From IMG/VR virus record IMGVR_UViG_3300045988_143938: 64,000 nt of DNA. One strand, given 5' to 3'. Below, one piece after another: positions 4,830-63,875 of the stretch. A model generated the notes under the pieces. That model searched no databases. It was given only the letters and a program-made list of their open reading frames with translations, and was not told the origin of the DNA. The position numbers were made by a program, and so were the translations under genes. Within the stretch, counting starts at the first letter, position 1; each line of letters starts with the position of its first letter. The DNA is from a virus.

Positions 4830-5194
4830 TGAAGCATATATTTTTTTTATTTGTAGGAATTTTGGCTTTATACGAAATCATGAAAGCCTTAAACTGTAAG
4901 AGGGTTTATTCTCGTACATACGAATATATACATTCTCCCAAAGAAGATAAGAATACATATTTTAAAAAGCACCCCATGCTTCTTTTAATGAGCGTTTTGG
5001 ATCTTTTTGAGTGGATGACATTAATGGCAGGACTAATGACAAGTCAATGGGTTTTATTTTTGGCGGTGATGGCTTTGTCTTTATCAAGATTCTACCGCCT
5101 CGGTAGTTGGGCCGTATGTATAGACTGTATTATTACTGTGGCTATTTACTTGTTTGCTATTATTAATACTTATCATTTACATATAGAATTATGA
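4829..5194 (+). CDS. hypothetical membrane protein (121 aa, about 4 TM)
   Basis: Hydrophobic segments run throughout the protein. The start overlaps the yopX-like stop. Confidence 0.55.
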   Translation: MKHIFFLFVGILALYEIMKALNCKRVYSRTYEYIHSPKEDKNTYFKKHPMLLLMSVLDLFEWMTLMAGLMTSQWVLFLAVMALSLSRFYRLGSWAVCIDCIITVAIYLFAIINTYHLHIEL

Positions 5195-5370
5195 GTAAAT
5201 TAAGAAGATATAAAAAGGTAGATACGAGTCTGTCTCATTTGTGCACTTTTGCACCAGTTAAAGATCCAGCAGTGGTAATAGGGTCTTATTACTGCAAAAA
5301 CATTTGTCCTCATTGCCGAGGGACGTTGAATATATTAGGAGTTAGATATGTAAGATGTGATAAACCATGA
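5191..5370 (+). CDS. hypothetical small Cys-containing protein (59 aa)
   Basis: ATGA overlap with the upstream stop. Contains YYCKNICPHCRG...RCD. Below the track cutoff; translated by hand. Confidence 0.4.
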   Translation: MSKLRRYKKVDTSLSHLCTFAPVKDPAVVIGSYYCKNICPHCRGTLNILGVRYVRCDKP

Positions 5371-7102: not shown

Positions 7103-7281
7103 ATGCTTGCGAGTTTGACGCTACAATATAGTGGCTGCCACCCCCATAGGTATAGTTAATGCTATATCTGCCTTTGGATAGGTTGAACAATGGGACAGGG
7201 CAGCCTTTTTCTTTGCCCTTCCGAAAAGCCGGATATGGGCAGGCTACCAGCCCTATAATGCCAATAAAGTTCAATAAATCT

Positions 7282-8082
7282 ATGGCAGAAATTAACAATT
7301 TGGGAGAACTGCTCCCTATCAGTGAAAACAACGGGAAAAAAGCCGTTAACGCACGTTACTTACATTCTTTTCTTGAAAGTAAACAAGAATTTGCTAATTG
7401 GATAAAAGGGCGTATTAATAAATACGACTTTGTAGAAGGAAAAGATTTTGAAACGCTCTATTTTGACTATCAAGGTAACTTATTGAATATCAGACATGAT
7501 AATTTTATCAAGTCTGAAAATCAGCAAGTTAGCAAAATAGAATATGCACTATCTATCGGCATGGCAAAAGAGCTTTCAATGCTCGAGAATAATGAACGAG
7601 GCAAACAAGCCCGAAAATATTTTATAGCATGCGAGGAAAACAAGCGTGAACTTTCCCGTAAGGAACTTCTTTTAATGGCTCTTCAAGCGGAAGAAGACAA
7701 GGAACGTTTAGCTTTGGAGAATGAAAAACAGCAGAAACAGATAGAAAGACTTAAACCTAAAGCTGATTTTGCTGAAAAAGCTTTTGCTATGGAAGGTAAG
7801 GTAGACATAGGCCAAGCCGCCAAAATTCTTAATCTTGGATATGGTAGAAACACCCTTTTCAAGAAGCTAAGGGAAGTTGGCGTATTCTTTGCAAATCGTA
7901 ATGAACCTAAGCAGAAATACATTGATGCAGGCTACTTTGAAATGACAGAAAAGCCTATATCAAGAAAAAATCATCCTGGATTTATTGTAATGGTTGTGAC
8001 ATGTACTCAAAAGGGATTAGCATACATCAATCACCTGTTTGGCGGCAATCCCTCAGACGGGAAATTAGCAAGAATAAGATAA
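7282..8082 (+). CDS. phage antirepressor (AntA-like N-terminus plus KilAC-type C-terminus)
   Basis: N-terminus: KKAVNARYLHSFLESKQEFANWIKGRINKYDFVEGKDFE (AntA pattern). C-terminus: KPKADFAEKAFAMEGKVDIGQAAKILNLGYGRNTLFKKLREVGVFF...KQKYIDAGYFEM (KilAC pattern). The start is taken at the MAEINNLG Met; the ORF-track start is 7159. Confidence 0.8.
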   Translation: MAEINNLGELLPISENNGKKAVNARYLHSFLESKQEFANWIKGRINKYDFVEGKDFETLYFDYQGNLLNIRHDNFIKSENQQVSKIEYALSIGMAKELSMLENNERGKQARKYFIACEENKRELSRKELLLMALQAEEDKERLALENEKQQKQIERLKPKADFAEKAFAMEGKVDIGQAAKILNLGYGRNTLFKKLREVGVFFANRNEPKQKYIDAGYFEMTEKPISRKNHPGFIVMVVTCTQKGLAYINHLFGGNPSDGKLARIR

Positions 8083-10702: not shown

Positions 10703-11119
10703 TTACAACGGAGGCAGAGGCGGTGATACTGGAGCGGCACCCGAAGGCGGCATTCCACCTCCTTTTTTCAGGCTTTTCAAGAACTCTATGCCTTGCATGA
10801 TATCGTTCTGATTTTCTTTCACCCAGCCGAATATCGTTCCGGCGGTATCCCTCACCTGTTGCATGGTTGTGGGAGGAACAACATCAAACGTAGGCAGTTC
10901 TTCCATGTCCTTAGCGAGAAAATCATACAGCTTCTCCGCTTCCTCTACGTTTCCTTTGGCTATCATCAGAGTTTGCATTTTCAGTGCAACCTTACTGGTA
11001 GGCTTTATCATTTTCAGCATTTCCATATTGTATTTTTTCTTTCTCCAAAACATAAGTAGCAATGTTTTTTTGTAAAAAGGGAAAGGCTTAGTGTGCCCTT
11101 CCCCGATACCGAAATGCAA
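10703..11119 (-). CDS. hypothetical protein with Pro-rich C-terminus (138 aa; alternative start 11026)
   Basis: The ORF abuts the upstream stop. The MEMLKMIKP... Met at 11026 is an equally plausible start. Confidence 0.5.
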   Translation of the reverse strand: MHFGIGEGHTKPFPFYKKTLLLMFWRKKKYNMEMLKMIKPTSKVALKMQTLMIAKGNVEEAEKLYDFLAKDMEELPTFDVVPPTTMQQVRDTAGTIFGWVKENQNDIMQGIEFLKSLKKGGGMPPSGAAPVSPPLPPL

Positions 11120-25314: not shown

Positions 25315-26136
25315 CTATTTTATAGGCGAAATCTTTCTGTCAGAAGGTTTCCCACCGAACAACTGATTGATATAAGCAAGTCCTTTGGGCTTACAAAGTA
25401 CCTTTTGATATAATATGTCGGGGTGGCTGTCTCTGTGTATAGGCGGTAACAGCGTCATTTCAAAATACCCGGCGTCAATGTACTTTTGTTTCGGTTCGTT
25501 CCTGTCTTTAAAGAATACGCCCACTTCCTTTAGCTTTTTAAAAAGGGTGTTTCTCCCGAAACCGAGGTTGAGAATCTTTGCGGCTTGGCCTATGTCTACT
25601 TTGCCCTCTGCTTTGAAAGCGGCTTCGGCAAAGTCGGCTTTGGGTTTTAGTTTGGCGTTCTTCTCTTCAAGCTGCTTCTTTTCTTGTTCTAATCTCGCCT
25701 TTTCCTCACGCTCATTTTTTAACTGTGTGGCAAGGCTGATAACAAGATCGGGGTTGTTTATCATCTGCTCCAAAGTTGGCTGCGTGGCGGTCATGCCGTA
25801 TTGGAGAAGCTCTTTGATGCGGTCATTGCACCATAAATAAAAGTCAGGAGAAAGCCATTGAGCGAAGATTAATGCCAAATCCTCATGTAACCATGTACCT
25901 TGATTGTTACCTCCTTGATTTACAGTAACTAAACCCGTTGCGGGAATTCCCGTTTTGGCTGATAATGAGCTAATTAACTCATTTGTCTGTTTTGTTGACA
26001 AAAAGTCATTACAGCGTTTTCCAAACGGTTTGGCCATTTCGGTGGCGTTCACCATTACACTATCGCCTTTCTGAAAGGTAATAGGACTTCCATTGTATTG
26101 GAAGATTTGATTTTCATTCAAGTGTCGCATAAACAA
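25315..26136 (-). CDS. antirepressor-type protein (KilA-N plus KilAC)
   Basis: N-terminus: ITFQKGDSVMVNATEMAKPFGKR...GTWLHEDLALIFAQWLSPDFYLWCNDRIKEL (KilA-N pattern). C-terminus: KPKADFAEAAFKAEGKVDIGQAAKILNLGFGRNTLFKKLKEVGVFF (KilAC pattern). Confidence 0.8.
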   Translation of the reverse strand: MFMRHLNENQIFQYNGSPITFQKGDSVMVNATEMAKPFGKRCNDFLSTKQTNELISSLSAKTGIPATGLVTVNQGGNNQGTWLHEDLALIFAQWLSPDFYLWCNDRIKELLQYGMTATQPTLEQMINNPDLVISLATQLKNEREEKARLEQEKKQLEEKNAKLKPKADFAEAAFKAEGKVDIGQAAKILNLGFGRNTLFKKLKEVGVFFKDRNEPKQKYIDAGYFEMTLLPPIHRDSHPDILYQKVLCKPKGLAYINQLFGGKPSDRKISPIK

Positions 26137-40415: not shown

Positions 40416-40482
40416 TCACCTATTTTCTATAAAAACAACATTATAGACATATTTTTATGGGTAAAATTTAGAAAATAGATGA
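40416..40482. promoter_or_regulatory. motif locus 3: TCACCTATTTTCTA (40416-29) and GGGTAAAATTTAGAAAATAGATGA (40459-82), inverted pair in the divergent late promoter region
   Basis: Each copy lies next to a -7 box, at 40408-15 (minus) and 40490-97 (plus). Confidence 0.65.
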
Positions 40483-40489
40483 AAAATCG

Positions 40490-40497
40490 TATATTTG
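40490..40497 (+). promoter_or_regulatory. -7 box TATATTTG
   Basis: Exact match 7 nt after the 14-mer and 78 nt before the terL ATG. Confidence 0.5.
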
Positions 40498-40527
40498 CAC
40501 TATATATTACTCATAGAGCTGTGAATC

Positions 40528-40574
40528 AAGCCGGAGTATGCAAAATCATATTGCATGCGACGGCTTATTTTTTT
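40528..40574 (+). terminator. leader terminator C immediately before the terL start codon
   Basis: AAGCCG 40528-33 pairs with CGGCTT 40561-66, with an inner ATGCA/TGCAT stem, then A + T7 (40568-74). The ATG is at 40575. Confidence 0.55.
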
Positions 40575-43265
40575 ATGGAATACGACGGAATTGTACATAC
40601 AAAAAATGGAGAGGGCGTATTTACTTATGCGCACATGGAAAAGCTGCGTGAATATGGAAATCCGCTTAATATAATCGCCCAAAAAGGATGTCAAGAAAAG
40701 TTCCTTGCGTCTCCGGCAGATATTACTATATTTGGAGGAAACCGTGGTGGCGGAAAGGCGCTGATATTCAATGAATTAGTGTGTACTCCGTTCGGATTTA
40801 GAAAAATCCAAGACATTAAAGCCGGCGACATAATCACTGGCCTTGACGGAGGAATGCAAAGGGTTGTTTACAACTCCTATCAGGGATTTAAAGAGTGTGT
40901 AAGACTTAAATTCGTTGACGGCTCTTATGCTGACTGCTGCATAGATCACTTATGGAATATCAAGCAATCTAACCATTGTTCAAAGAAAAGGGCTTTATAT
41001 AACCTCCCCTTAGAGGATGAATGGCGGGTGTGGACTACTCAAATGATTATAGACCACATGGAAAAGCAGAAGGGGAAGAAGCAGCCGCGCCATTTATCTG
41101 TTCCGTTGTGCAAGCCAGTTCGATTCACCAAAGGGAAATACTTCAAGCCTAAATTCAGTCCGTATCTGATTGGTGCGCTCATCGGGGACGGATGTATTGC
41201 CGATAGTGTAATCAGTAAAAACTGCTGTTATTTATTTAATCCTGACGAGGAAGTCATTGGCGAGTTCAAGAAATCAGTAGGGTATTCTTCTTGCGAGTTT
41301 GAGAAAGGCTGCTACCGCATGCGCATCAACGACAAAGAGCTTATCGCAGAGATTCAGAAATTGAATATAACAGGGCGTGCGGCAGATAAACACGTTCCTG
41401 ACATGTATTTATATGGGTCGCTGGAGGAAAGATGGGCGCTTGTTCAGGGCTTAATGGATACCGACGGAACTATTGATGAAAGAGGGCACCTGTCTTATAC
41501 TACAATAAGCAAACAGCTTGCGGAAGATGTAAAATTCCTTATCAACAGTTTGGGAGGATTGGCGACGATTGGCAGAGGCACCGCGGGGTATAGAAATAGC
41601 AATGGAAAATTTATCCAATGTAATGACGCATACACTCTTTATATAAGAATCCCGGATGCCGAAAGGATGTTTCGCGTAAAAAGGAAAAAGGAAAGATGCA
41701 AACCTTATAATGGCGGAATAAGCATCAATGCGAGAAGAATTATAGGCTACGATATGATAGGGAAGAAGGAGTGTTGCTGTATTGCAGTAACCAATCCGGA
41801 TAGTTTGTTTCTGACAAGGGATTTTATTGTCACCCATAATTCTTGGGCCTTGCTAATGGAGGTCTTGAAAGATATAAATAACCCGAATTTTGCTTCTGTA
41901 ATCCTGAGAAACGAAAAAGAGGACTTGAGTAATATAGTAAACAAGTCTTATGAACTTTTCTCTCAATACGGAAAGTACAACCGCTCTATCTCGGACATGA
42001 CTTGGAACTTCTATAACGGAGGTTTTTTAAAGTTTTCCTATTATGCGGATTCTTACGAAGACTTCGTAAAGCGTTTTCAGGGAAAAGAGTTTGCCTTTAT
42101 CGGTATAGACGAAATCACTCACTCTGATTACCTGAAGTTCAAATACCTTATTACCAACAACCGTAATGCCTACGGTATAAGAAACCGTTTTTATGGCACA
42201 TGTAACCCTGACCCGGATAGCTGGGTACGTAAATTCATAGACTGGTGGATTGATGAAAACGGTAACCCTATTCCGGAGCGAGACGGGGTAATACGCTATT
42301 GCTTCATGGATGGCGACCGACCGGAAGATATTTACTGGGGGGATTCCGTAGACGAAGTTTATAACCAATGCAGGCATATCATAGATCCGTTGCTTACGCC
42401 GGGTCTTATCAGTAAGGGTTACGACAAGTCGGCATTCGTGAAGACAGTCACATTCATAAAGGGAAAGCTTGAAGAGAACGTTGCTCTTATATCTTCCGAC
42501 CCTAATTATTTAGCCAACCTGGCCCAGCAGGACGAAGAATCTCGCGCAAGGGACTTGGAAGGGAACTGGAACTTTAAAGCTGCCGGGGATGATATTATCA
42601 AGATGGAACACATGGAGCGCTTCTTTAAAAATACCGCCCAATACGGAGACGAGAAGCGTAGGGTATCATGCGATATTGCATACGAGGGAGGAGACAACCT
42701 TGTCTTGTGGCTGTGGATCGGGAACCATATCGAAGATGTATATGTGAGTAGGGATAATTCCAAGCGGACGGAAGAGTGTGTTGCCCATAAACTTAGAGAG
42801 TGGGGCGTGCTGGAAAAGGATTTTGTTTTTGACTTAAACGGCCCCGGCCAGGATTTTAAAGGGAAATTCCCCGATGCGGTCAGGTTTAATAATATGGCTG
42901 CTCCAATACCCGCGACAAAAGCGGATGAGAAATCAATCAAGTATGTGTACTCCTCTTTAAAATCACAGTGTGCGGATATTCTTGTAAAAAAGATAAAGAA
43001 CGAGGAGATATCCATAAATCCCGATTTGTTATCGCGCAAATTCTCCGGTAACGGATATTCCGGAGTAACCCTTTATAATATTCTTATGAAAGAGAGAAAG
43101 GCTATTCGGGACGCGGAAACAGACAAAGGGTTTGCCTTGATTAAAAAGGAAACTATGAAAAAATACGTCGGGCACTCTCCTGACTTTATAGAAGCGATGA
43201 TTTACAGACAAATTTTTGATATAAAAAAACATAACACAAAACCAAAAGGATTATGGAGATTATAA
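40575..43265 (+). CDS. terL: terminase large subunit, intein-containing precursor
   Basis: Walker A GGNRGGGK|...|S is interrupted. Walker B is FAFIGIDEITH. GTCNPD is present, followed by a nuclease-half-sized C-terminus. The start is set at MEYDG because the track start 40479 overlaps the promoter motif. Confidence 0.9.
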   Translation: MEYDGIVHTKNGEGVFTYAHMEKLREYGNPLNIIAQKGCQEKFLASPADITIFGGNRGGGKALIFNELVCTPFGFRKIQDIKAGDIITGLDGGMQRVVYNSYQGFKECVRLKFVDGSYADCCIDHLWNIKQSNHCSKKRALYNLPLEDEWRVWTTQMIIDHMEKQKGKKQPRHLSVPLCKPVRFTKGKYFKPKFSPYLIGALIGDGCIADSVISKNCCYLFNPDEEVIGEFKKSVGYSSCEFEKGCYRMRINDKELIAEIQKLNITGRAADKHVPDMYLYGSLEERWALVQGLMDTDGTIDERGHLSYTTISKQLAEDVKFLINSLGGLATIGRGTAGYRNSNGKFIQCNDAYTLYIRIPDAERMFRVKRKKERCKPYNGGISINARRIIGYDMIGKKECCCIAVTNPDSLFLTRDFIVTHNSWALLMEVLKDINNPNFASVILRNEKEDLSNIVNKSYELFSQYGKYNRSISDMTWNFYNGGFLKFSYYADSYEDFVKRFQGKEFAFIGIDEITHSDYLKFKYLITNNRNAYGIRNRFYGTCNPDPDSWVRKFIDWWIDENGNPIPERDGVIRYCFMDGDRPEDIYWGDSVDEVYNQCRHIIDPLLTPGLISKGYDKSAFVKTVTFIKGKLEENVALISSDPNYLANLAQQDEESRARDLEGNWNFKAAGDDIIKMEHMERFFKNTAQYGDEKRRVSCDIAYEGGDNLVLWLWIGNHIEDVYVSRDNSKRTEECVAHKLREWGVLEKDFVFDLNGPGQDFKGKFPDAVRFNNMAAPIPATKADEKSIKYVYSSLKSQCADILVKKIKNEEISINPDLLSRKFSGNGYSGVTLYNILMKERKAIRDAETDKGFALIKKETMKKYVGHSPDFIEAMIYRQIFDIKKHNTKPKGLWRL
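40758..41840 (+). mobile_element. intein (361 aa) with LAGLIDADG homing-endonuclease domain, class-3-like
   Basis: Block A: ALIFNELVCTPFGFRKIQDI. Block B: GSYADCCIDHLW. LAGLIDADG motifs: LIGALIGDGCI and LVQGLMDTDGTI. Block F: ECCCIAV. Block G: FIVTHN, followed by Ser +1. Confidence 0.8.
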
Positions 43266-52471: not shown

Positions 52472-53605
52472 TTACAATTTACTGTCCATCTTTTCAAATT
52501 CTTCTTGTACGGACTTGTTTAGCACTTTGGCGTAGATCTGTGTAGTTTTTATATCCGTATGTCCCATCATTTTTGCAAGGTTTTCAATCGAAACTCCCAT
52601 ATTCAATGCCATAACCGCAAAACTATGCCGGGCCATGTGCGAATGTAGGTTTTGTTTTATCCTCGCGAGCTCCTGAACGACTTTCAGTCTTAAATTATAC
52701 TGATAGTTGCTTATTACGGGCAGTTTGAAATCGTATTTTTGCAGAATTTCCATTGCGGGCTTAAGAAGCATCAGGAAATACTCTTCTTCCGTTTTTACTC
52801 TTACGTCTCTTATAAAGAATTTGTTCCCTTTCTTGATTACACCGCTAAAATCAAAGTTGAACAAATCTGCATAAGACAAACCCGTAAAACATTGGAATAC
52901 GAACAAGTCTCTAACCCGTTCAATGCTCTCGGATGCCGTTTTTAAGCCTTGTATTTGCTTTATCTGTTCTAAGGTGAGGTATTTTATACCTTCGCTCTTT
53001 CCGCGCTCAAATTTGAGCTTATTATACGGGTTGTCTTTCAGCAAATCATATTTGATGGCTTCGTTTATATATCTTTTCAGGCGCTTATGATAACCATGTA
53101 TTGTCGTCTGCTTGTTGTACTTCCCATGAAGGAAATTGTCATAGTGCATTATGTTAGCCGTAGTAACGTCCGTAAAGTAAACGATCCGACCGAACTCTTT
53201 CAGGGATGTTATTAAGGAGGCATGCGTATTTAACGTTCCTTGCCTGAGGTCGGTTCTTTCGCCCACTCTCCGTTTTATAAAATCTATAAAGCTTTCTTTT
53301 GTTTGGGAATACTTTAAAAAGTGTTCCAGCTTATCAAAACTGAAAGGTTCTTTGTTTTTTACCAACCCGTTTATGAACTCGTTGATGTTCCGCATTTGCG
53401 TATCAAGCCTTTCGTTGAGGTCTAAAGATTGAACGGTATTCTTAACCTTTGTTTTTTCGCTCCATTGGTCGGAATACAACCGAACGCCTGTACTTAACCA
53501 TTTTCTTTTCCGTTCAAACAAAATTTCTATTTGAACGGTTCCTTTCGTTGTCTTGCTTGCCGTATGTTTACGGTCAAAAACAAACCTTAATACTGGATAC
53601 TTCAT
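52472..53605 (-). CDS. int: site-specific integrase (Bacteroides-type tyrosine recombinase, 377 aa)
   Basis: The N-terminal MKYPVLRFVFDRKHTASKTTKGTVQIEILF arm-binding style is typical of Bacteroidetes integrases. C-terminus: HMARHSFAVMALNMGVSIENLAKMMGHTDIKTTQIYAKV. Confidence 0.9.
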   Translation of the reverse strand: MKYPVLRFVFDRKHTASKTTKGTVQIEILFERKRKWLSTGVRLYSDQWSEKTKVKNTVQSLDLNERLDTQMRNINEFINGLVKNKEPFSFDKLEHFLKYSQTKESFIDFIKRRVGERTDLRQGTLNTHASLITSLKEFGRIVYFTDVTTANIMHYDNFLHGKYNKQTTIHGYHKRLKRYINEAIKYDLLKDNPYNKLKFERGKSEGIKYLTLEQIKQIQGLKTASESIERVRDLFVFQCFTGLSYADLFNFDFSGVIKKGNKFFIRDVRVKTEEEYFLMLLKPAMEILQKYDFKLPVISNYQYNLRLKVVQELARIKQNLHSHMARHSFAVMALNMGVSIENLAKMMGHTDIKTTQIYAKVLNKSVQEEFEKMDSKL

Positions 53606-54374: not shown

Positions 54375-54619
54375 ACCGCACAGAAGCAAGAATAGTAGCA
54401 GAAGAACTGTATAAGCTTATGCGCAAAGACGTGAAAAGGCTTGTGGAGGAGACAATAATTGAATGTTCCGATGAATGGATTGGAGTAGGAGAGGCTGCAA
54501 ATATTCTTGGATGCTCTGTTGGTACCTTGTATAACAATATAGACAGTATCCCACATACTAAAAACGGGAGATTGCTCCGATTTAGAAAAGCGTCATTGAT
54601 TAAATATTTAGAAAGATGA
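54371..54619 (+). CDS. xis: excisionase-family HTH protein
   Basis: WIGVGEAANILGCSVGTLYNNIDSIPHTKNGRLLRFRKASLIKYL is the HTH_17/excisionase pattern. Located near int. Confidence 0.7.
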   Translation: MNRTEARIVAEELYKLMRKDVKRLVEETIIECSDEWIGVGEAANILGCSVGTLYNNIDSIPHTKNGRLLRFRKASLIKYLER

Positions 54620-54852
54620 GAAGCTTCAATTTGAATAAAATCACAAGTCTTGGACTGCGAATAGCATTGATTATGGTTGTTATGGCAGGATGTGTATATG
54701 GTGGCCGCGTAGAGTATAATGATGATGTATTATCCGGTATAAGCTCTGAAAAATACGACTTTATCAGCAGCAGGATAAGCGATAATTCAAGATCGGCAGT
54801 CGTAAATGAATACATGAAAAACAAACGGTACTACGACAGTATTGAATTTTAA
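54616..54852 (+). CDS. small lipoprotein candidate (78 aa)
   Basis: LRIALIMVVMAGC is a lipobox-like signal. Confidence 0.5.
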   Translation: MRSFNLNKITSLGLRIALIMVVMAGCVYGGRVEYNDDVLSGISSEKYDFISSRISDNSRSAVVNEYMKNKRYYDSIEF

Positions 54853-54878
54853 AAACCGCGTTGTGTGAATAACGCTCC

Positions 54879-54991
54879 TTCCTCTTAGCTCAACGGTTAG
54901 AGCATCGCTAAGGTTATTTGTTCGTAAGGGTTTAGCGTTTCCGGTCTGTTCCGGTTAGCGATTGTTGCACGTTCGATTCGTGCAGAGGAAG
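54879..54991 (+). ncRNA. tRNA-like element with expanded anticodon arm
   Basis: Acceptor stem: TTCCTCT 54879-85 / AGAGGAA 54984-90. D arm: GCTC-AACGGTTA-GAGC. T arm: GCACG-TTCGATT-CGTGC. 5-nt variable loop. In place of a 17-nt anticodon stem-loop there is an 8-bp helix, ATCGCTAA 54904-11 / TTAGCGAT 54955-62, enclosing 43 nt. Confidence 0.5.
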
Positions 54992-54999
54992 CAAGATAC

Positions 55000-55372
55000 A
55001 CCGTTCTTTGACGTATTGAATGTGAAACAAAGTTTGAATATCTGATATTCGGATTTGTTTCAATATAACTAAGGATTACGTATAGCGGAAACGCCGAAAC
55101 TACGTATAGGCTTGGTTATCGTGATTGTTTCTCGCACCGAAATGTCCTACGGTAGAGAAGTATGCGGTTTGGGCGCCCGTATCGCGAGAAACAACAGGTC
55201 ATAAAGACAATATAAGCGTCCGATACAGTCTTAAATCGGTATAAAGTATGCGGTGGTAATGAAAGGCGGCCGTACACGCTTATTATATATATTCTCGTGG
55301 CTCACCATAAGGCGAGTGGTAAGGCTTAACATCGGAACGCTCACGAGAACAATTACTAATCACTAATTTAAA
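55000..55372 (+). ncRNA. ORF-free, hairpin-dense region (candidate structured RNA)
   Basis: No ORF of 60 aa or more in any frame. Nested stems read by eye, with approximate positions: TGAAACAAA/TTTGTTTCA with inner GAATATC/GATATTC (about 55021-63); TTGTTTCTCGC/GCGAGAAACAA (11 bp, about 55125-95); AAGCGT/ACGCTT; TTCTCGTG/CACGAGAA (about 55292-350). Confidence 0.4.
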
Positions 55373-55384
55373 ATCAAAATTATT

Positions 55385-55777
55385 ATGAAGAATTATTTTA
55401 TAGCAGCTATTATCGGGGTTGTTGTGTTAGTGGGAATTTTTGCAGTTATTCCTTATTATAATGTATGGCAACAAGAAATGTCCGGTAAGGCGGAATTTGC
55501 AAAAGCAGAGCAGAACCGCAAGATAAAAATTGAAGAAGCGAAAGCTAATCTTGAGGCTGAAAAATTAAACGCTCAAGCAGAAATAGAGCGAGCCAAAGGA
55601 GCCGCGGAAGCAATAAAGATAGAGAACGGAAGCATTACTCCTGCTTATATTCAATATCTATGGGTAAGGCAGCAAAGTAACTTAAATGATAAAACTGTCA
55701 TCTATATTCCGACAGAAACTAATCTTCCAATTTTAGAAGCATCCAGACAATATGGAAAATCGACAAGTAGTATTTGA
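55385..55777 (+). CDS. N-terminally anchored coiled-coil membrane protein, SPFH-C-like (130 aa)
   Basis: TM segment IAAIIGVVVLVGIFAVI, then AEFAKAEQNRKIKIEEAKANLEAEKLNAQAEIERAKGAAEAIKIENGSITPAYIQYLW, which resembles the C-terminal repeats of band-7/prohibitin proteins. Recognised by eye only. Confidence 0.55.
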   Translation: MKNYFIAAIIGVVVLVGIFAVIPYYNVWQQEMSGKAEFAKAEQNRKIKIEEAKANLEAEKLNAQAEIERAKGAAEAIKIENGSITPAYIQYLWVRQQSNLNDKTVIYIPTETNLPILEASRQYGKSTSSI

Positions 55778-56141
55778 CGGAAAGGACATTACTTTTTGTG
55801 CCGATAACGTTCCTGTTGTAAACGGAAATCCGCCGGAAGAGATAGTAATTAGTGGAGATTATACTATTGACGCGTTTTCTTTGGTTGAACTGGTTGCTGC
55901 TATTAATAAAAATGCATGCGGCATGGTAGTATCAACTCCTATTGTTTTTCATTGTGAGGCATATGGAACATCCTGTATTCGAATATTTTCAAGAGAAAAA
56001 CTACCGGAAGAGATTGAAGATGCGCTTAATGTACCGAAAAGGATGTTGAACGCTTTAGAAAAAGACGTACAACAATTAAAAGAAAAAATAGAAGCACATA
56101 ATAACCTTGTGTGGTATAAGCGCATAAGAAAGATAGTATAG
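55752..56141 (+). CDS. hypothetical protein (129 aa)
   Basis: Overlaps the upstream gene by 26 nt. Confidence 0.55.
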   Translation: MENRQVVFDGKDITFCADNVPVVNGNPPEEIVISGDYTIDAFSLVELVAAINKNACGMVVSTPIVFHCEAYGTSCIRIFSREKLPEEIEDALNVPKRMLNALEKDVQQLKEKIEAHNNLVWYKRIRKIV

Positions 56142-61571: not shown

Positions 61572-62405
61572 ATGAACACTTCAATTATTAAATTCGATTA
61601 CAACGGAAATCAAATTCCTTTTGAAAAAGGAGATGATGTAATGGTAAACCTTACAGCTATGGCAAAAGCCTATCCTGATAAGAATTTATCCACAATTGTT
61701 AACTCGCAGGAAATCAGTGATTATTGCGCATCACTTTCCAAACTAAAAAATTTTAGTTTGGCTGATTTACTGATAGTTAAGAGAGGCGGAGATAATCCTG
61801 GTACTTGGGCTCACCGTCTTGTCGCTATTCGTGTTGCACAAAAACTAAATTCCGATTTAGCGGTGTGGGTGGATATGAGAGTAGATGAGCTTCTTAAATA
61901 CGGTATGACCGCCACGCAGCCAACTTTGGAGCAGATGATAAACAACCCCGATCTTGTTATCAGCCTTGCCACGCAGTTAAAGAGCGAACGCGAGGAGAAA
62001 CAAAGGATAGAGACGGAGAACTTGTATCTAAAAGAACAGAACGAAGCTCAACGCCCAGCTGTAATATTTACAGAAAGCGTAAAGGTAAGTAGTACGAACA
62101 TACTTATTGAAGACCTCGCAAAACTCATTACTCAGAACGGATATAAAATCGGAGAAATCAGATTGTACAATTGGTTTGTGGATAATGGGTATTTGGTACG
62201 GCACAAGAGATGGAGCAATTCAAGAAGGAAATACGAGAACTATTACACCCCAACACAGAGGGCTGCGGAAATGAAGCTGTTTTGGGTATCAGAAAGGGTT
62301 ATTTCAAATCCGGGTCAACCACAGTTTACAAGATTTACATGTTATGTAACCGGAGAGGGACAGGTATATTTCATTAATAAATTCAATAAATTAAAAGTTG
62401 CATAA
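61572..62405 (+). CDS. antirepressor-type protein (KilA-N plus ANT-like C-terminus)
   Basis: IPFEKGDDVMVNLTAMAKAY...GTWAHRLVAIRVAQKLNSDLAVWVDMRVDEL is the KilA-N pattern. The linker YGMTATQPTLEQMINNPDLVISLATQLK is identical to that of 25315..26136. Confidence 0.8.
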   Translation: MNTSIIKFDYNGNQIPFEKGDDVMVNLTAMAKAYPDKNLSTIVNSQEISDYCASLSKLKNFSLADLLIVKRGGDNPGTWAHRLVAIRVAQKLNSDLAVWVDMRVDELLKYGMTATQPTLEQMINNPDLVISLATQLKSEREEKQRIETENLYLKEQNEAQRPAVIFTESVKVSSTNILIEDLAKLITQNGYKIGEIRLYNWFVDNGYLVRHKRWSNSRRKYENYYTPTQRAAEMKLFWVSERVISNPGQPQFTRFTCYVTGEGQVYFINKFNKLKVA

Positions 62406-62820: not shown

Positions 62821-63231
62821 ATGCTGTACGAATTTAAGCTTAAAGTAAACAAGGTTAACGAGAAAGGCGATGAAAAAGAAGTCACCGAGCAATTCATCAC
62901 TGATGTAGATTTGTTCTGTCAGGCAGAACAGAAAGGCCTTGAAATGTACGCTTCTAACAATATGGAGTGTGACGTTTTCGCAATCAGCCGTAGCAAGATA
63001 CGTGAGATTGTCAATGAGAAGCAGGATGATGAGTTCTTTTACAAGATAACCCTTGTTGAAGTTTTTGTTGACGACAACGGGAAAGAAAAAGAGAATAAAT
63101 ATTACGTTCTCATAGCGGCAAAGAATATGGATGATGCCAACAAAAAGGCGGCGGAATACATGAAGCAGGGACTTCAAGATATGAAGCTGGACGCTATTGC
63201 CAAAACAAAGATTTTGGACTTAGTAAAATAA
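62821..63231 (+). CDS. hypothetical protein (136 aa)
   Basis: Clean ORF. The antisense ORF 62788..63177 is judged spurious. Confidence 0.6.
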   Translation: MLYEFKLKVNKVNEKGDEKEVTEQFITDVDLFCQAEQKGLEMYASNNMECDVFAISRSKIREIVNEKQDDEFFYKITLVEVFVDDNGKEKENKYYVLIAAKNMDDANKKAAEYMKQGLQDMKLDAIAKTKILDLVK

Positions 63232-63369
63232 ACCAAAAGCCCTCTACTGATGTAGAAGTTCTGTGAAAGGTTCAGGTTAAGATTTAATCAGCTAACAAAT
63301 TAACTATCCCGGTGTGGTTTGACCGCCTATCCGGGAACAAGGGCCTGTGAAGATTGGGCAGGTGAATAT

Positions 63370-63513
63370 GGAGAAGTGGTGTAATTGGTAGGCACGCCGT
63401 GGGTAGCGCGGTGAGTGTAATAGAAATAGGAAGTTGGTGCTTTTCCACCTTAGCAGTCATGCTATAGTAACAAGCCGAATAAACTCGTCCCGGTTCGAGC
63501 CCGGGCTTCTCCT
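63370..63513 (+). ncRNA. second tRNA-like element (acceptor/D/T arms, about 90-nt non-canonical middle)
   Basis: Acceptor stem: GGAGAAG 63370-76 / CTTCTCC 63506-12. D arm: GTGT-AATTGGTAG-GCAC. T arm: CCCGG-TTCGAGC-CCGGG. No canonical anticodon stem-loop follows the D arm. It lies at the 3' end of a 297-nt ORF-free gap. Confidence 0.45.
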
Positions 63514-63528
63514 CTAAATATATTTACC

Positions 63529-63693
63529 ATGAGACTTACATTAACTAAAACCGAAATTGCAATTGTTCAGAAACTTGTGATAGACCGAAAGCGTGACATT
63601 CATAATGCAGGAGGTGACAGCAAGCAGTATGAGATGCTAAGTAAGCTAAATAAAAAGATTGCAAGGCAGGCAAAGAAATTTTATAAAACATGA
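63529..63693 (+). CDS. hypothetical small protein (54 aa)
   Basis: Hand-translated as MRLTLTKTEIAIVQKLVIDRKRDIHNAGGDSKQYEMLSKLNKKIARQAKKFYKT. ATGA overlap with the next gene. Confidence 0.4.
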   Translation: MRLTLTKTEIAIVQKLVIDRKRDIHNAGGDSKQYEMLSKLNKKIARQAKKFYKT

Positions 63694-63875
63694 AACCCTA
63701 CGTAATTACCTCTATGGCTCTCATTACACACAGCGGAAAAAAGTTACCGCTTACAGTAATAGAGAGCCACATCCTAACAAAACCTTTGGAAACAATCAAG
63801 GATAAGCTGCTTGATGCTTTCTCTACGATGAAAGACAAGCCGGTGAATGTTGAATTGAAAATAAAATATGTATGA
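63690..63875 (+). CDS. hypothetical protein (61 aa)
   Basis: Coupled overlaps at both ends. Confidence 0.5.
   Translation: MKPYVITSMALITHSGKKLPLTVIESHILTKPLETIKDKLLDAFSTMKDKPVNVELKIKYV

Follow-up and report, generated by a model that had tools for sequence, protein, structure and literature searches.

Transfer RNA (tRNA) genes carried by phages are usually explained by codon supply. There are also stable phage RNAs which do not decode but are processed by RNase P via tRNA-like features, such as the species 1 and 2 RNAs of phage T4 (rnaC and rnaD), C4 of phages P1 and P7 and CI of phage P4, with C4 and CI being cut from early or immunity-region transcripts of temperate phages. A more recent explanation for phage tRNA genes is escape from host nucleases that cleave tRNA (PMC10264068), and in the Lak megaphages of Prevotella, tRNA genes have been described with short, "enigmatic" introns which are not of group I, for example one of 93 nucleotides (nt) in a tRNA-Tyr (PMC6784885). 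The present analysis concerns a tRNA-shaped RNA gene at 54879-54991 on the plus strand of a 64,000-nt stretch of viral DNA (IMG/VR record IMGVR_UViG_3300045988_143938; the whole stretch is referred to here as the window), together with the non-coding region downstream of it. The tRNA-like element and the downstream region are structured RNA that is absent from Rfam 15. Comparison of relatives indicates that the element is under selection to fold as an L-shaped tRNA and is not a scar. We interpret it, with roughly even chances of being right, as a tRNA-derived, non-decoding RNA, in which a tRNA-Arg-type body with an expanded functional anticodon arm would act as a carrier or decoy.

The body of the element is similar to that of a tRNA-Arg with anticodon CCG, as judged by folding, alignment and the intron mode of ARAGORN, and CCA is not encoded. 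It consists of a 7-bp acceptor stem (TTCCTCT at 54879-85 pairing with AGAGGAA at 54984-90) with a discriminator G at 54991, a D arm carrying G18G19 (GCTC-AACGGTTA-GAGC, 54888-54903), a 5-nt variable loop (TTGTT, 54962-66) and a T arm with T54 T55 C56 and A58 (GCACG-TTCGATT-CGTGC, 54967-83). An 8-bp helix occupies the anticodon position (ATCGCTAA at 54904-11 with TTAGCGAT at 54955-62). These helices had all been drawn in an earlier note on this DNA, made from the letters alone, and they reappear in the cloverleaf that RNAfold returns as the minimum-free-energy structure (-34.5 kcal/mol), although this folding energy is only mildly unusual (z = -1.9). The universal tRNA features U8, A14, G18G19, G46, T54 T55 C56, A58, C61 and an R15:Y48 pair are present, as are the determinants of RNase P, namely a 7-bp acceptor stacked on a 5-bp T stem and a D/T elbow. 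Three nucleotides upstream of the 5' end is a leader hairpin with a GNRA cap (GCGTTGT-GTGA-ATAACGC, 54858-54875, plus strand), which is kept as GCGTTGT-GTGA-ACAACGC in one of the related lineages described below (V2). On the minus strand a T run comes after the same hairpin, which there has a terminator-like score.

Standard annotation does not report the element. ARAGORN in default mode identified 0 tRNA genes in the whole window, and a cmscan search of the whole window against Rfam 15 gave nothing at the gathering score. At E <= 10, the region 54600-55600 gave only four matches, all at chance level and none to tRNA (RF00005). This is in keeping with the suggestion of the earlier note that a different, undescribed RNA might be present, as nothing relevant was obtained at either threshold. 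The only detector to report the element was ARAGORN with introns allowed, a mode which had been recommended in the same note, and which called 54879-54992 as tRNA-Arg(CCG) interrupted by 38 nt. The anticodon stem is not a continuous one of 5 bp closing a 7-nt loop, as the insert intervenes between the loop and the 5' side of the stem.

Pattern and protein searches of IMG/VR gathered ~300 loci, and the tRNA-like element was found in 118 copies on gut phage contigs, comprising 23 distinct sequences in three lineages. The window belongs to lineage V1, with an insert of 38 nt; the insert is 34 nt in lineage V2 (~90 copies) and 42-43 nt in lineage V3. Among the 23 variants, 97.4% of the cloverleaf cells are paired compared with 39-51% when the partners are slid, and pairs 2:71 and 31:39 differ on both sides. 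All but one of the remaining stem substitutions result in G.U or U.G, apart from the non-pairs U10.U25 and position 33:83 which are fixed in V3, and a stem-breaking single-nucleotide polymorphism (SNP) was seen in one variant only, at two loci. By inspection, the tertiary pair 15:48 also covaries, being A:U in V1 and G:C in V2 and V3. That the 5' and 3' halves co-evolve in cis, with single changes to G.U on the plus strand only, argues for selection acting on an RNA. Neither IMG/VR nor the 241 million JGI metagenome records contained, for either exon type, an allele without the insert or with an insert of <31 nt.

ARAGORN intron mode and alignments place the 38-nt insertion of the window (54911-54948, plus strand) just before loop nucleotide 32, after the 5' half of the anticodon stem. 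Adjoining the 3' half of that stem on its 5' side is an anticodon-loop-like heptamer, TTCCGGT (54949-54955, plus strand), which supplies U33, CCG and G37 and is invariant in 23/23 variants. The earlier note had seen no loop with U33 and a purine at position 37, but this heptamer has both. A hypothetical insert-free junction, running from 54910 to 54949 on the plus strand, would join GCATCGCTA to TTCCGGTTAGCGA, the 5' side ending in GAGCATCGCTA. In the alignment of the variants the insert contains the invariant blocks GGTTA, TTCG, GTTTAG and TCCGG. The CC or CCGG of the anticodon has as its pairing partner either the opening GG of the insert or the upstream TCCGG copy, and as both options are built from invariant bases covariation is unable to choose between them. 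For the interior of the insert, RNAalifold and single-sequence folds also yield competing pairings. Partial duplicates of the neighbouring anticodon arm are found within the insert, TCCGGT in all lineages and TTAGCG in V1 alone. The alternative pairing through TTAGCG to which the earlier note had drawn attention is thus present in V1, but it is absent from the other two lineages and is not conserved. The insert motif was not found in any other tRNA, its remaining hits being chance ones within coding DNA. The idea of a mobile intron was rejected on the basis that the motif is confined to one tRNA.

The element is not the only one of its kind in these phages. A second tRNA-shaped element of 145 nt, with a central domain of ~95 nt, was identified by ARAGORN intron mode at 63370-63514 (plus strand). 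It possesses an acceptor stem GGAGAAG/CTTCTCC, a tRNA-Leu-like D arm and a T arm CCCGG-TTCGAGC-CCGGG, and it ends 14 nt before an open reading frame (ORF) starting at 63529. In these phages there are also tRNA-Leu-like bodies, characterised by the D arm GGCGGAATGGTAGACGC, a discriminator A and the T arm CCCGG-TTCGAGT-CCGGG. One such body (TGCGACA...TGTCGCA) was found to hold three or more central domains unrelated to each other, the elements being 105-107, 108 and 189 nt long (loci L102, L107, L270 and others, for example 5168-5272 of related locus L117), with other bodies being represented by a 130-nt element (L101) and by the 145-nt element of the window. All of these sister elements are missed by default ARAGORN. 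In intron mode they are assigned to His, Leu, Pyl, Phe, Cys, Ala or Asp, varying with small sequence differences, and the 145-nt element itself is called Cys or Ala depending on the locus. No Rfam match was obtained at E <= 10 for 63150-63750, and neither the window nor any other locus of the phage lineage yielded an uninterrupted tRNA. The inconsistent calls indicate that elements of this sort can show an apparent "anticodon" by chance. It is mainly because a constant tRNA body holds exchangeable central domains that a carrier is ranked here above an intron.

The region downstream of the tRNA-like element (plus strand) was found to be an array of five serial modules, each with its own closing stem, at 55023-55349. 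Module H0 (55023-55062) is a long hairpin, TGAAACAAA...TTTGTTTCA, with an inner stem GAATAT/ATATTC; compensatory changes are seen in it between array types (TGAAATAAG/CTTATTTCA and AAGTAT/ATATTT). Module H1 (55065-55119) has a 9-bp closing stem, in which all changes are to G.U or U.G, an inner TACGTA/TACGTA helix and the tip GCG-GAAA-CGC, and an inner pair changes from U:A to G:C on both sides in 13/47 sequences. Module M1 (55125-55194) is a three-way junction with an 11-bp closing stem, two pairs of which differ on both sides, and the hairpins ACCG/CGGT and ATGCGG/CCGTAT. Its paralogue M2 (55212-55283) has an 8-bp closing stem and the shared core AAGTATGCGG. A third paralogue occurs in an alternative array, and all three have the three-way-junction design and the core AAGUAUG in common. 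A candidate loop-loop kissing pair reads GUCC:GGGC in two of the paralogues, M1 among them, and GUCU:AGGC in M2, a single compensatory difference which is only suggestive of loop-loop pairing in M1 and M2. The last module, M3 (55292-55349), consists of an 8-bp closing stem (TTCTCGTG/CACGAGAA) which covaries from T:A to C:G, an inner hairpin and a conserved 3' segment (GTAAGGC..CATCGGAACGCT), and it ends 35 nt before an ATG at 55385. In relatives the inner hairpin of M3 is swapped for unrelated sequence that still forms a hairpin.

The modules are also exchanged as units. At L003, L085, L091 and L093 an unrelated array replaces the middle 290 nt with the tRNA-like element and M3 being retained, and in some relatives M4 or M5 substitutes for M3. 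Module M3 was found at the junctions of unrelated gene cassettes in ~60 related loci, with at least 8 different right-hand flanks, a location that recalls a portable 5' untranslated region (UTR) element or the boundary of a cassette. Its 3' segment ATCGGAACG is a near-complement of the CGTTCGAT stretch in the T arm of the tRNA-like element. From H1 to M2, 97.4% of the pair cells are paired in 47 distinct sequences compared with 27-43% for slid controls; three pairs differ on both sides and every single change is G.U or U.G on the plus strand. As these would be A.C mismatches on the other strand, an RNA read from the plus strand is indicated, and the near-invariant interiors of the modules point to a sequence-specific function. 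Folding of the downstream stretch compared with shuffled sequences gave z = -2.9 on the plus strand and -1.7 on the minus strand.

No plus-strand ORF of >= 40 aa is present in the downstream stretch, which bears out the earlier note on this point. That note had, however, described nested long-range helices and raised GOLLD, ROOL, HEARO and raiA as possible relatives. The helices are instead serial modules of 40-72 nt, not parts of one large RNA, and none of the four families was matched by cmscan in 54600-55600 at the gathering score or at E <= 10. Rfam searches at E <= 1 in the related loci L117 and L267 returned only the unrelated RT-17 and RT-3, both in L267, where the RT-17 RNA (a reverse-transcriptase-associated motif) at 10769-10845 on the plus strand scores 41.5 bits against a gathering score of 40.4. 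In L236, ~800-900 nt past the start of the tRNA-like element, an ORF downstream of the array carries a tandem GGCTCTGGCTATGGC-type repeat, which would encode a low-complexity stretch rich in Gly, Ser, Tyr and Asp. A link between the array and the downstream 130-aa gene was considered and rejected, as most relatives of this gene lack the RNA cassette and have a promoter-like region of ~345 nt or a gap of 25-80 nt in its place.

If the element is a non-decoding RNA, it would be transcribed on the plus strand in an early rightward operon, behind a HTH_17 gene (Xis/AlpA-like; 54410-54619, plus strand, the start being approximate and based on 70-aa homologues). Host RNase P would cut at 54879, cleavage being expected from the intact acceptor/T-arm helix and D/T elbow, and the 3' end would be finished after G54991 by RNase Z or exonucleases together with the CCA-adding enzyme. 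Going by this anatomy, processing would free a stable RNA of ~113 nt and would create the 5' end of the module array, with H0, H1, M1, M2 and M3 as separate, exchangeable structured domains of the same transcript. Function would reside in the expanded arm of ~60 nt with its GGUUA, UUCG and GUUUAG blocks and tandem UCCGGU copies, and the CCG "anticodon" would be sequestered in a helix. More speculatively, the RNA may be a tRNA mimic or decoy, or a stabilised carrier of a cargo domain which binds a putative tRNA-recognising factor of the host or the phage. The element sits in a variable early accessory region of the phage. The insert behaves as a constrained domain, in that it is fixed, contains invariant blocks and has a motif found in no other tRNA.

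Several observations weigh against a carrier or decoy and are best considered together with the alternatives. The insert is somewhat less conserved than its flanks and contains indels. A crude duplex scan for antisense targets of the insert on both strands of the window gave a best plus-strand hit of -40.2, compared with best values of -36.6 to -40.4 for shuffled controls, and a cargo function by base pairing is therefore without support. The others are points in favour of a genuine tRNA-Arg(CCG) gene with a novel short intron (34-43 nt) at the 31/32 boundary of the anticodon arm, which we consider the main alternative, though a tentative one. Such an intron would be removed by a host or phage endonuclease and a ligase, putatively RtcB or the like; the anticodon would be masked until removal, and this masking could regulate when the precursor matures or guard it against anticodon nucleases. 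Bacterial tRNAs reading CNN codons typically carry m1G37, and G37 is expected beside a CCG anticodon. The invariant TTCCGGT, with its U33 and with G37 adjoining CCG, has this form, ARAGORN intron mode calls tRNA-Arg(CCG) in 3/3 lineages, and V3 without its insert has a fully canonical 5-bp stem and 7-nt loop, as in an intron-containing tRNA. The tertiary covariation of the tRNA core also favours an intron, as does the fact that annotated phage tRNA genes, at 75-80% identity, are the only matches of the sequence after in silico deletion of the insert. There is a precedent in the Lak megaphages, which likewise belong to Bacteroidales hosts and have short non-group-I tRNA introns (PMC6784885). 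In V1 and V2, however, which make up >100 of the 118 copies, removal of the insert leaves a 6-bp anticodon stem, or two connector nucleotides and a 6-nt variable loop. The position of A20 is U or C in the element, A20 being an identity base for arginyl-tRNA synthetase in Escherichia coli, and CGG is a minor codon with 9% of the Arg codons in window genes. The invariant blocks inside the insert, the absence of an intron-less allele from IMG/VR and JGI metagenomes and the lack of a consistent anticodon in the sister elements also speak against an intron. No RNA ligase or splicing endonuclease was detected by Pfam among the ~50 window proteins, a scan which covered phage proteins and in which many ORFs were matchless, and to our knowledge no splicing endonuclease is known in Bacteroidales hosts. 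As to the type of intron, the catalytic core P3-P8 of group I requires at least ~200 nt; group I was rejected for an insert of 34-43 nt without an Intron_gpI match in Rfam, and the earlier note had been right to call the insert too short. Its doubt about an archaeal-type intron was also well placed, since no bulge-helix-bulge can be drawn with conserved pairs at the V1, V2 or V3 junctions on inspection of the folds and alignment. A third kind of intron, outside both the bulge-helix-bulge type and self-splicing group I, would imply an undescribed protein pathway of cutting and rejoining in Bacteroidales or their phages, and we regard this as rather doubtful. If it were true, the introns of Lak megaphages might be matured by the same pathway, with masking serving for timing or for evasion of anticodon nucleases.

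Rejection by the standard tRNA detectors, and an insert with partial duplicates of anticodon-arm sequence (TCCGGT, TTAGCG), are what would be seen in a decaying tRNA pseudogene or in a now functionless scar of insertion or imprecise excision. The earlier note had allowed for such a scar, but 118 copies in three diverged lineages with compensatory and G.U stem changes, an intact tertiary core, invariant insert blocks and a stem-breaking SNP in one variant only make it very improbable. There is similarly little to be expected from a DNA-level site, whether the attP of a nearby tyrosine integrase on a tRNA gene or an operator consisting of the tandem TCCGGT repeats. A tyrosine integrase of Bacteroidales type with arm-binding and SAM-like domains is indeed encoded 1.3 kb from the element (52472-53605, minus strand), integrases of this family often target tRNA genes (NBU1, NBU2), and TCCGGT is present in tandem copies in the insert. 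Nevertheless, the halves of the element co-evolve in cis (2:71, 31:39, 15:48) with strand-specific G.U changes, and phage genes lie on both sides of it. No exact match to a 24-nt T-arm/acceptor pattern occurred among 185,579 representative genomes of bacteria and archaea, so that, as far as the T-arm/acceptor part is concerned, the element does not duplicate the end of a host tRNA. In addition, related prophages in Bacteroidales genomes have no such element beside the homologous gene. The array, alone or with the tRNA-like element, could also be a cis-acting leader of the early operon, for instance a processive-antitermination or attenuation RNA working with the HTH_17/AlpA-like protein encoded upstream, tandem M1/M2 aptamers, or 5' modules for stabilisation or processing. 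We judge this to be unlikely. The array does lie between the HTH_17 gene and the next ORFs of the same strand with no promoter of its own being recognised, M1 and M2, in tandem, are paralogous three-way junctions whose junctions and loops are nearly invariant in sequence, and M3 always lies at a cassette junction or a few dozen nucleotides ahead of a start codon. Against this, the downstream genes vary among relatives, the array is missing entirely from close relatives of the downstream gene, none of the modules is followed by a terminator-like expression platform and no riboswitch or leader family of Rfam was matched. The probabilities attached to these readings do not sum to one, because a leader function of the array is compatible with either reading of the tRNA-like element.

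The window originates from a temperate phage of gut Bacteroidales. Pfam and PHROG scans of ~50 of its proteins identified a T4-type large terminase, a portal, a major head protein, a D5/primase-helicase, two tyrosine recombinases (the integrase being one), HTH_17, antirepressors and a YqaJ exonuclease. A 71-kb IMG/VR contig from a human gut sample has a region identical to that of the window, and prophages with relatives of the neighbouring 130-aa gene are found in Muribaculaceae, Bacteroides, Parabacteroides and Prevotella. A blastn search of 54600-55800 against 50,697 cultured-phage records gave no match. In the early region, the leftward ORFs are the integrase and a 109-aa ORF; rightward are a 68-aa ORF, the HTH_17 gene, a 78-aa lipoprotein-like ORF, the non-coding stretch and further plus-strand genes. 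In all three lineages the HTH_17 gene lies to the left of the tRNA-like element, and no other neighbour is constant. Between the two, the 78-aa ORF (54616-54852, plus strand), present in some relatives and absent in others, has a signal-peptide-like N-terminus and a lipobox-like MAGC; its product may be a moron or superinfection-exclusion lipoprotein. The gene for the large terminase subunit (40479-43265, plus strand) has a LAGLIDADG_3 domain (residues 320-373) before its Terminase_6N match, which suggests an intein or homing-endonuclease insertion. Three antirepressor paralogues (KilA-N or AntA with an ANT domain) are encoded at 7159-8082 (plus), 25315-26130 (minus) and 61572-62405 (plus).

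Widespread temperate phages of gut Bacteroidales thus carry tRNA-shaped genes only with oversized central domains, which standard annotation misses. We know of no natural bacterial or phage tRNA body that carries another RNA. If the elements are carriers or decoys, they would possibly be the first natural case in bacteria or phages in which other RNA domains rely on a tRNA body as a scaffold for their processing and stability, and they would be candidates for RNA-based counter-defence. If they are spliced, an undescribed tRNA splicing pathway in bacteria or phages would be implied, and the Lak megaphage introns would be explained. Either way, the interrupted tRNA, the M1/M2 three-way junction and the M3 junction element are structured RNA classes new to Rfam.

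Compared with a canonical tRNA-Arg(CCG) (RF00005), the element likewise has a 7-bp acceptor, the universal bases, a 5-nt variable loop and UUCCGGU, but it differs in the 34-43 nt inserted, in the 6-bp anticodon stem of V1 and V2 and in the absence of A20. Introns of the bulge-helix-bulge and group I types are also inserts in the anticodon arm, the nucleotides of which can pair with the anticodon; however, the 3-nt bulge, 4-bp helix and 3-nt bulge of the former are a geometry absent at the junctions of the element. The Lak megaphage tRNAs and the element are both from Bacteroidales phages and have inserts at the anticodon loop which are not group I and which are near-identical across samples. 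In the Lak tRNA-Tyr (GTA), the sole one examined, the intron of 93 nt is predicted to start 3' of the anticodon, which is where the eukaryote mode of tRNAscan places introns, whereas the insert of the element is 5' of the loop, is 34-43 nt long and shows no sequence similarity. Moreover, the Lak genomes have many normal tRNAs and the present lineage has none.

The GOLLD (RF01998) and ROOL (RF03087) RNAs are also associated with phages or prophages, adjacent to tRNAs, non-coding and highly structured, but each is one architecture of ~580-800 nt, whereas the region described here consists of 330-370 nt of independently exchanged modules. The C4, CI and T4 RNAs mimic the acceptor/T-arm only, while the element is a full cloverleaf with a tertiary core, and where the loops of C4 and CI are complementary to sites in the same operon, the element has no target above shuffled controls in the window. 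Two further systems use a tRNA body to hold another RNA. Ponchon and Dardel reportedly engineered a tRNA scaffold carrying a foreign RNA domain, and the TMERs of murine gammaherpesvirus 68 are transcripts which join tRNA and microRNA. In both, the tRNA body provides folding, processing and stability to a foreign domain located within or beside its anticodon arm, and the tRNA-Leu-like body of these phages likewise holds unrelated domains. However, the tRNA scaffold is synthetic and the TMERs are eukaryotic, whereas the elements described here are encoded by phages.

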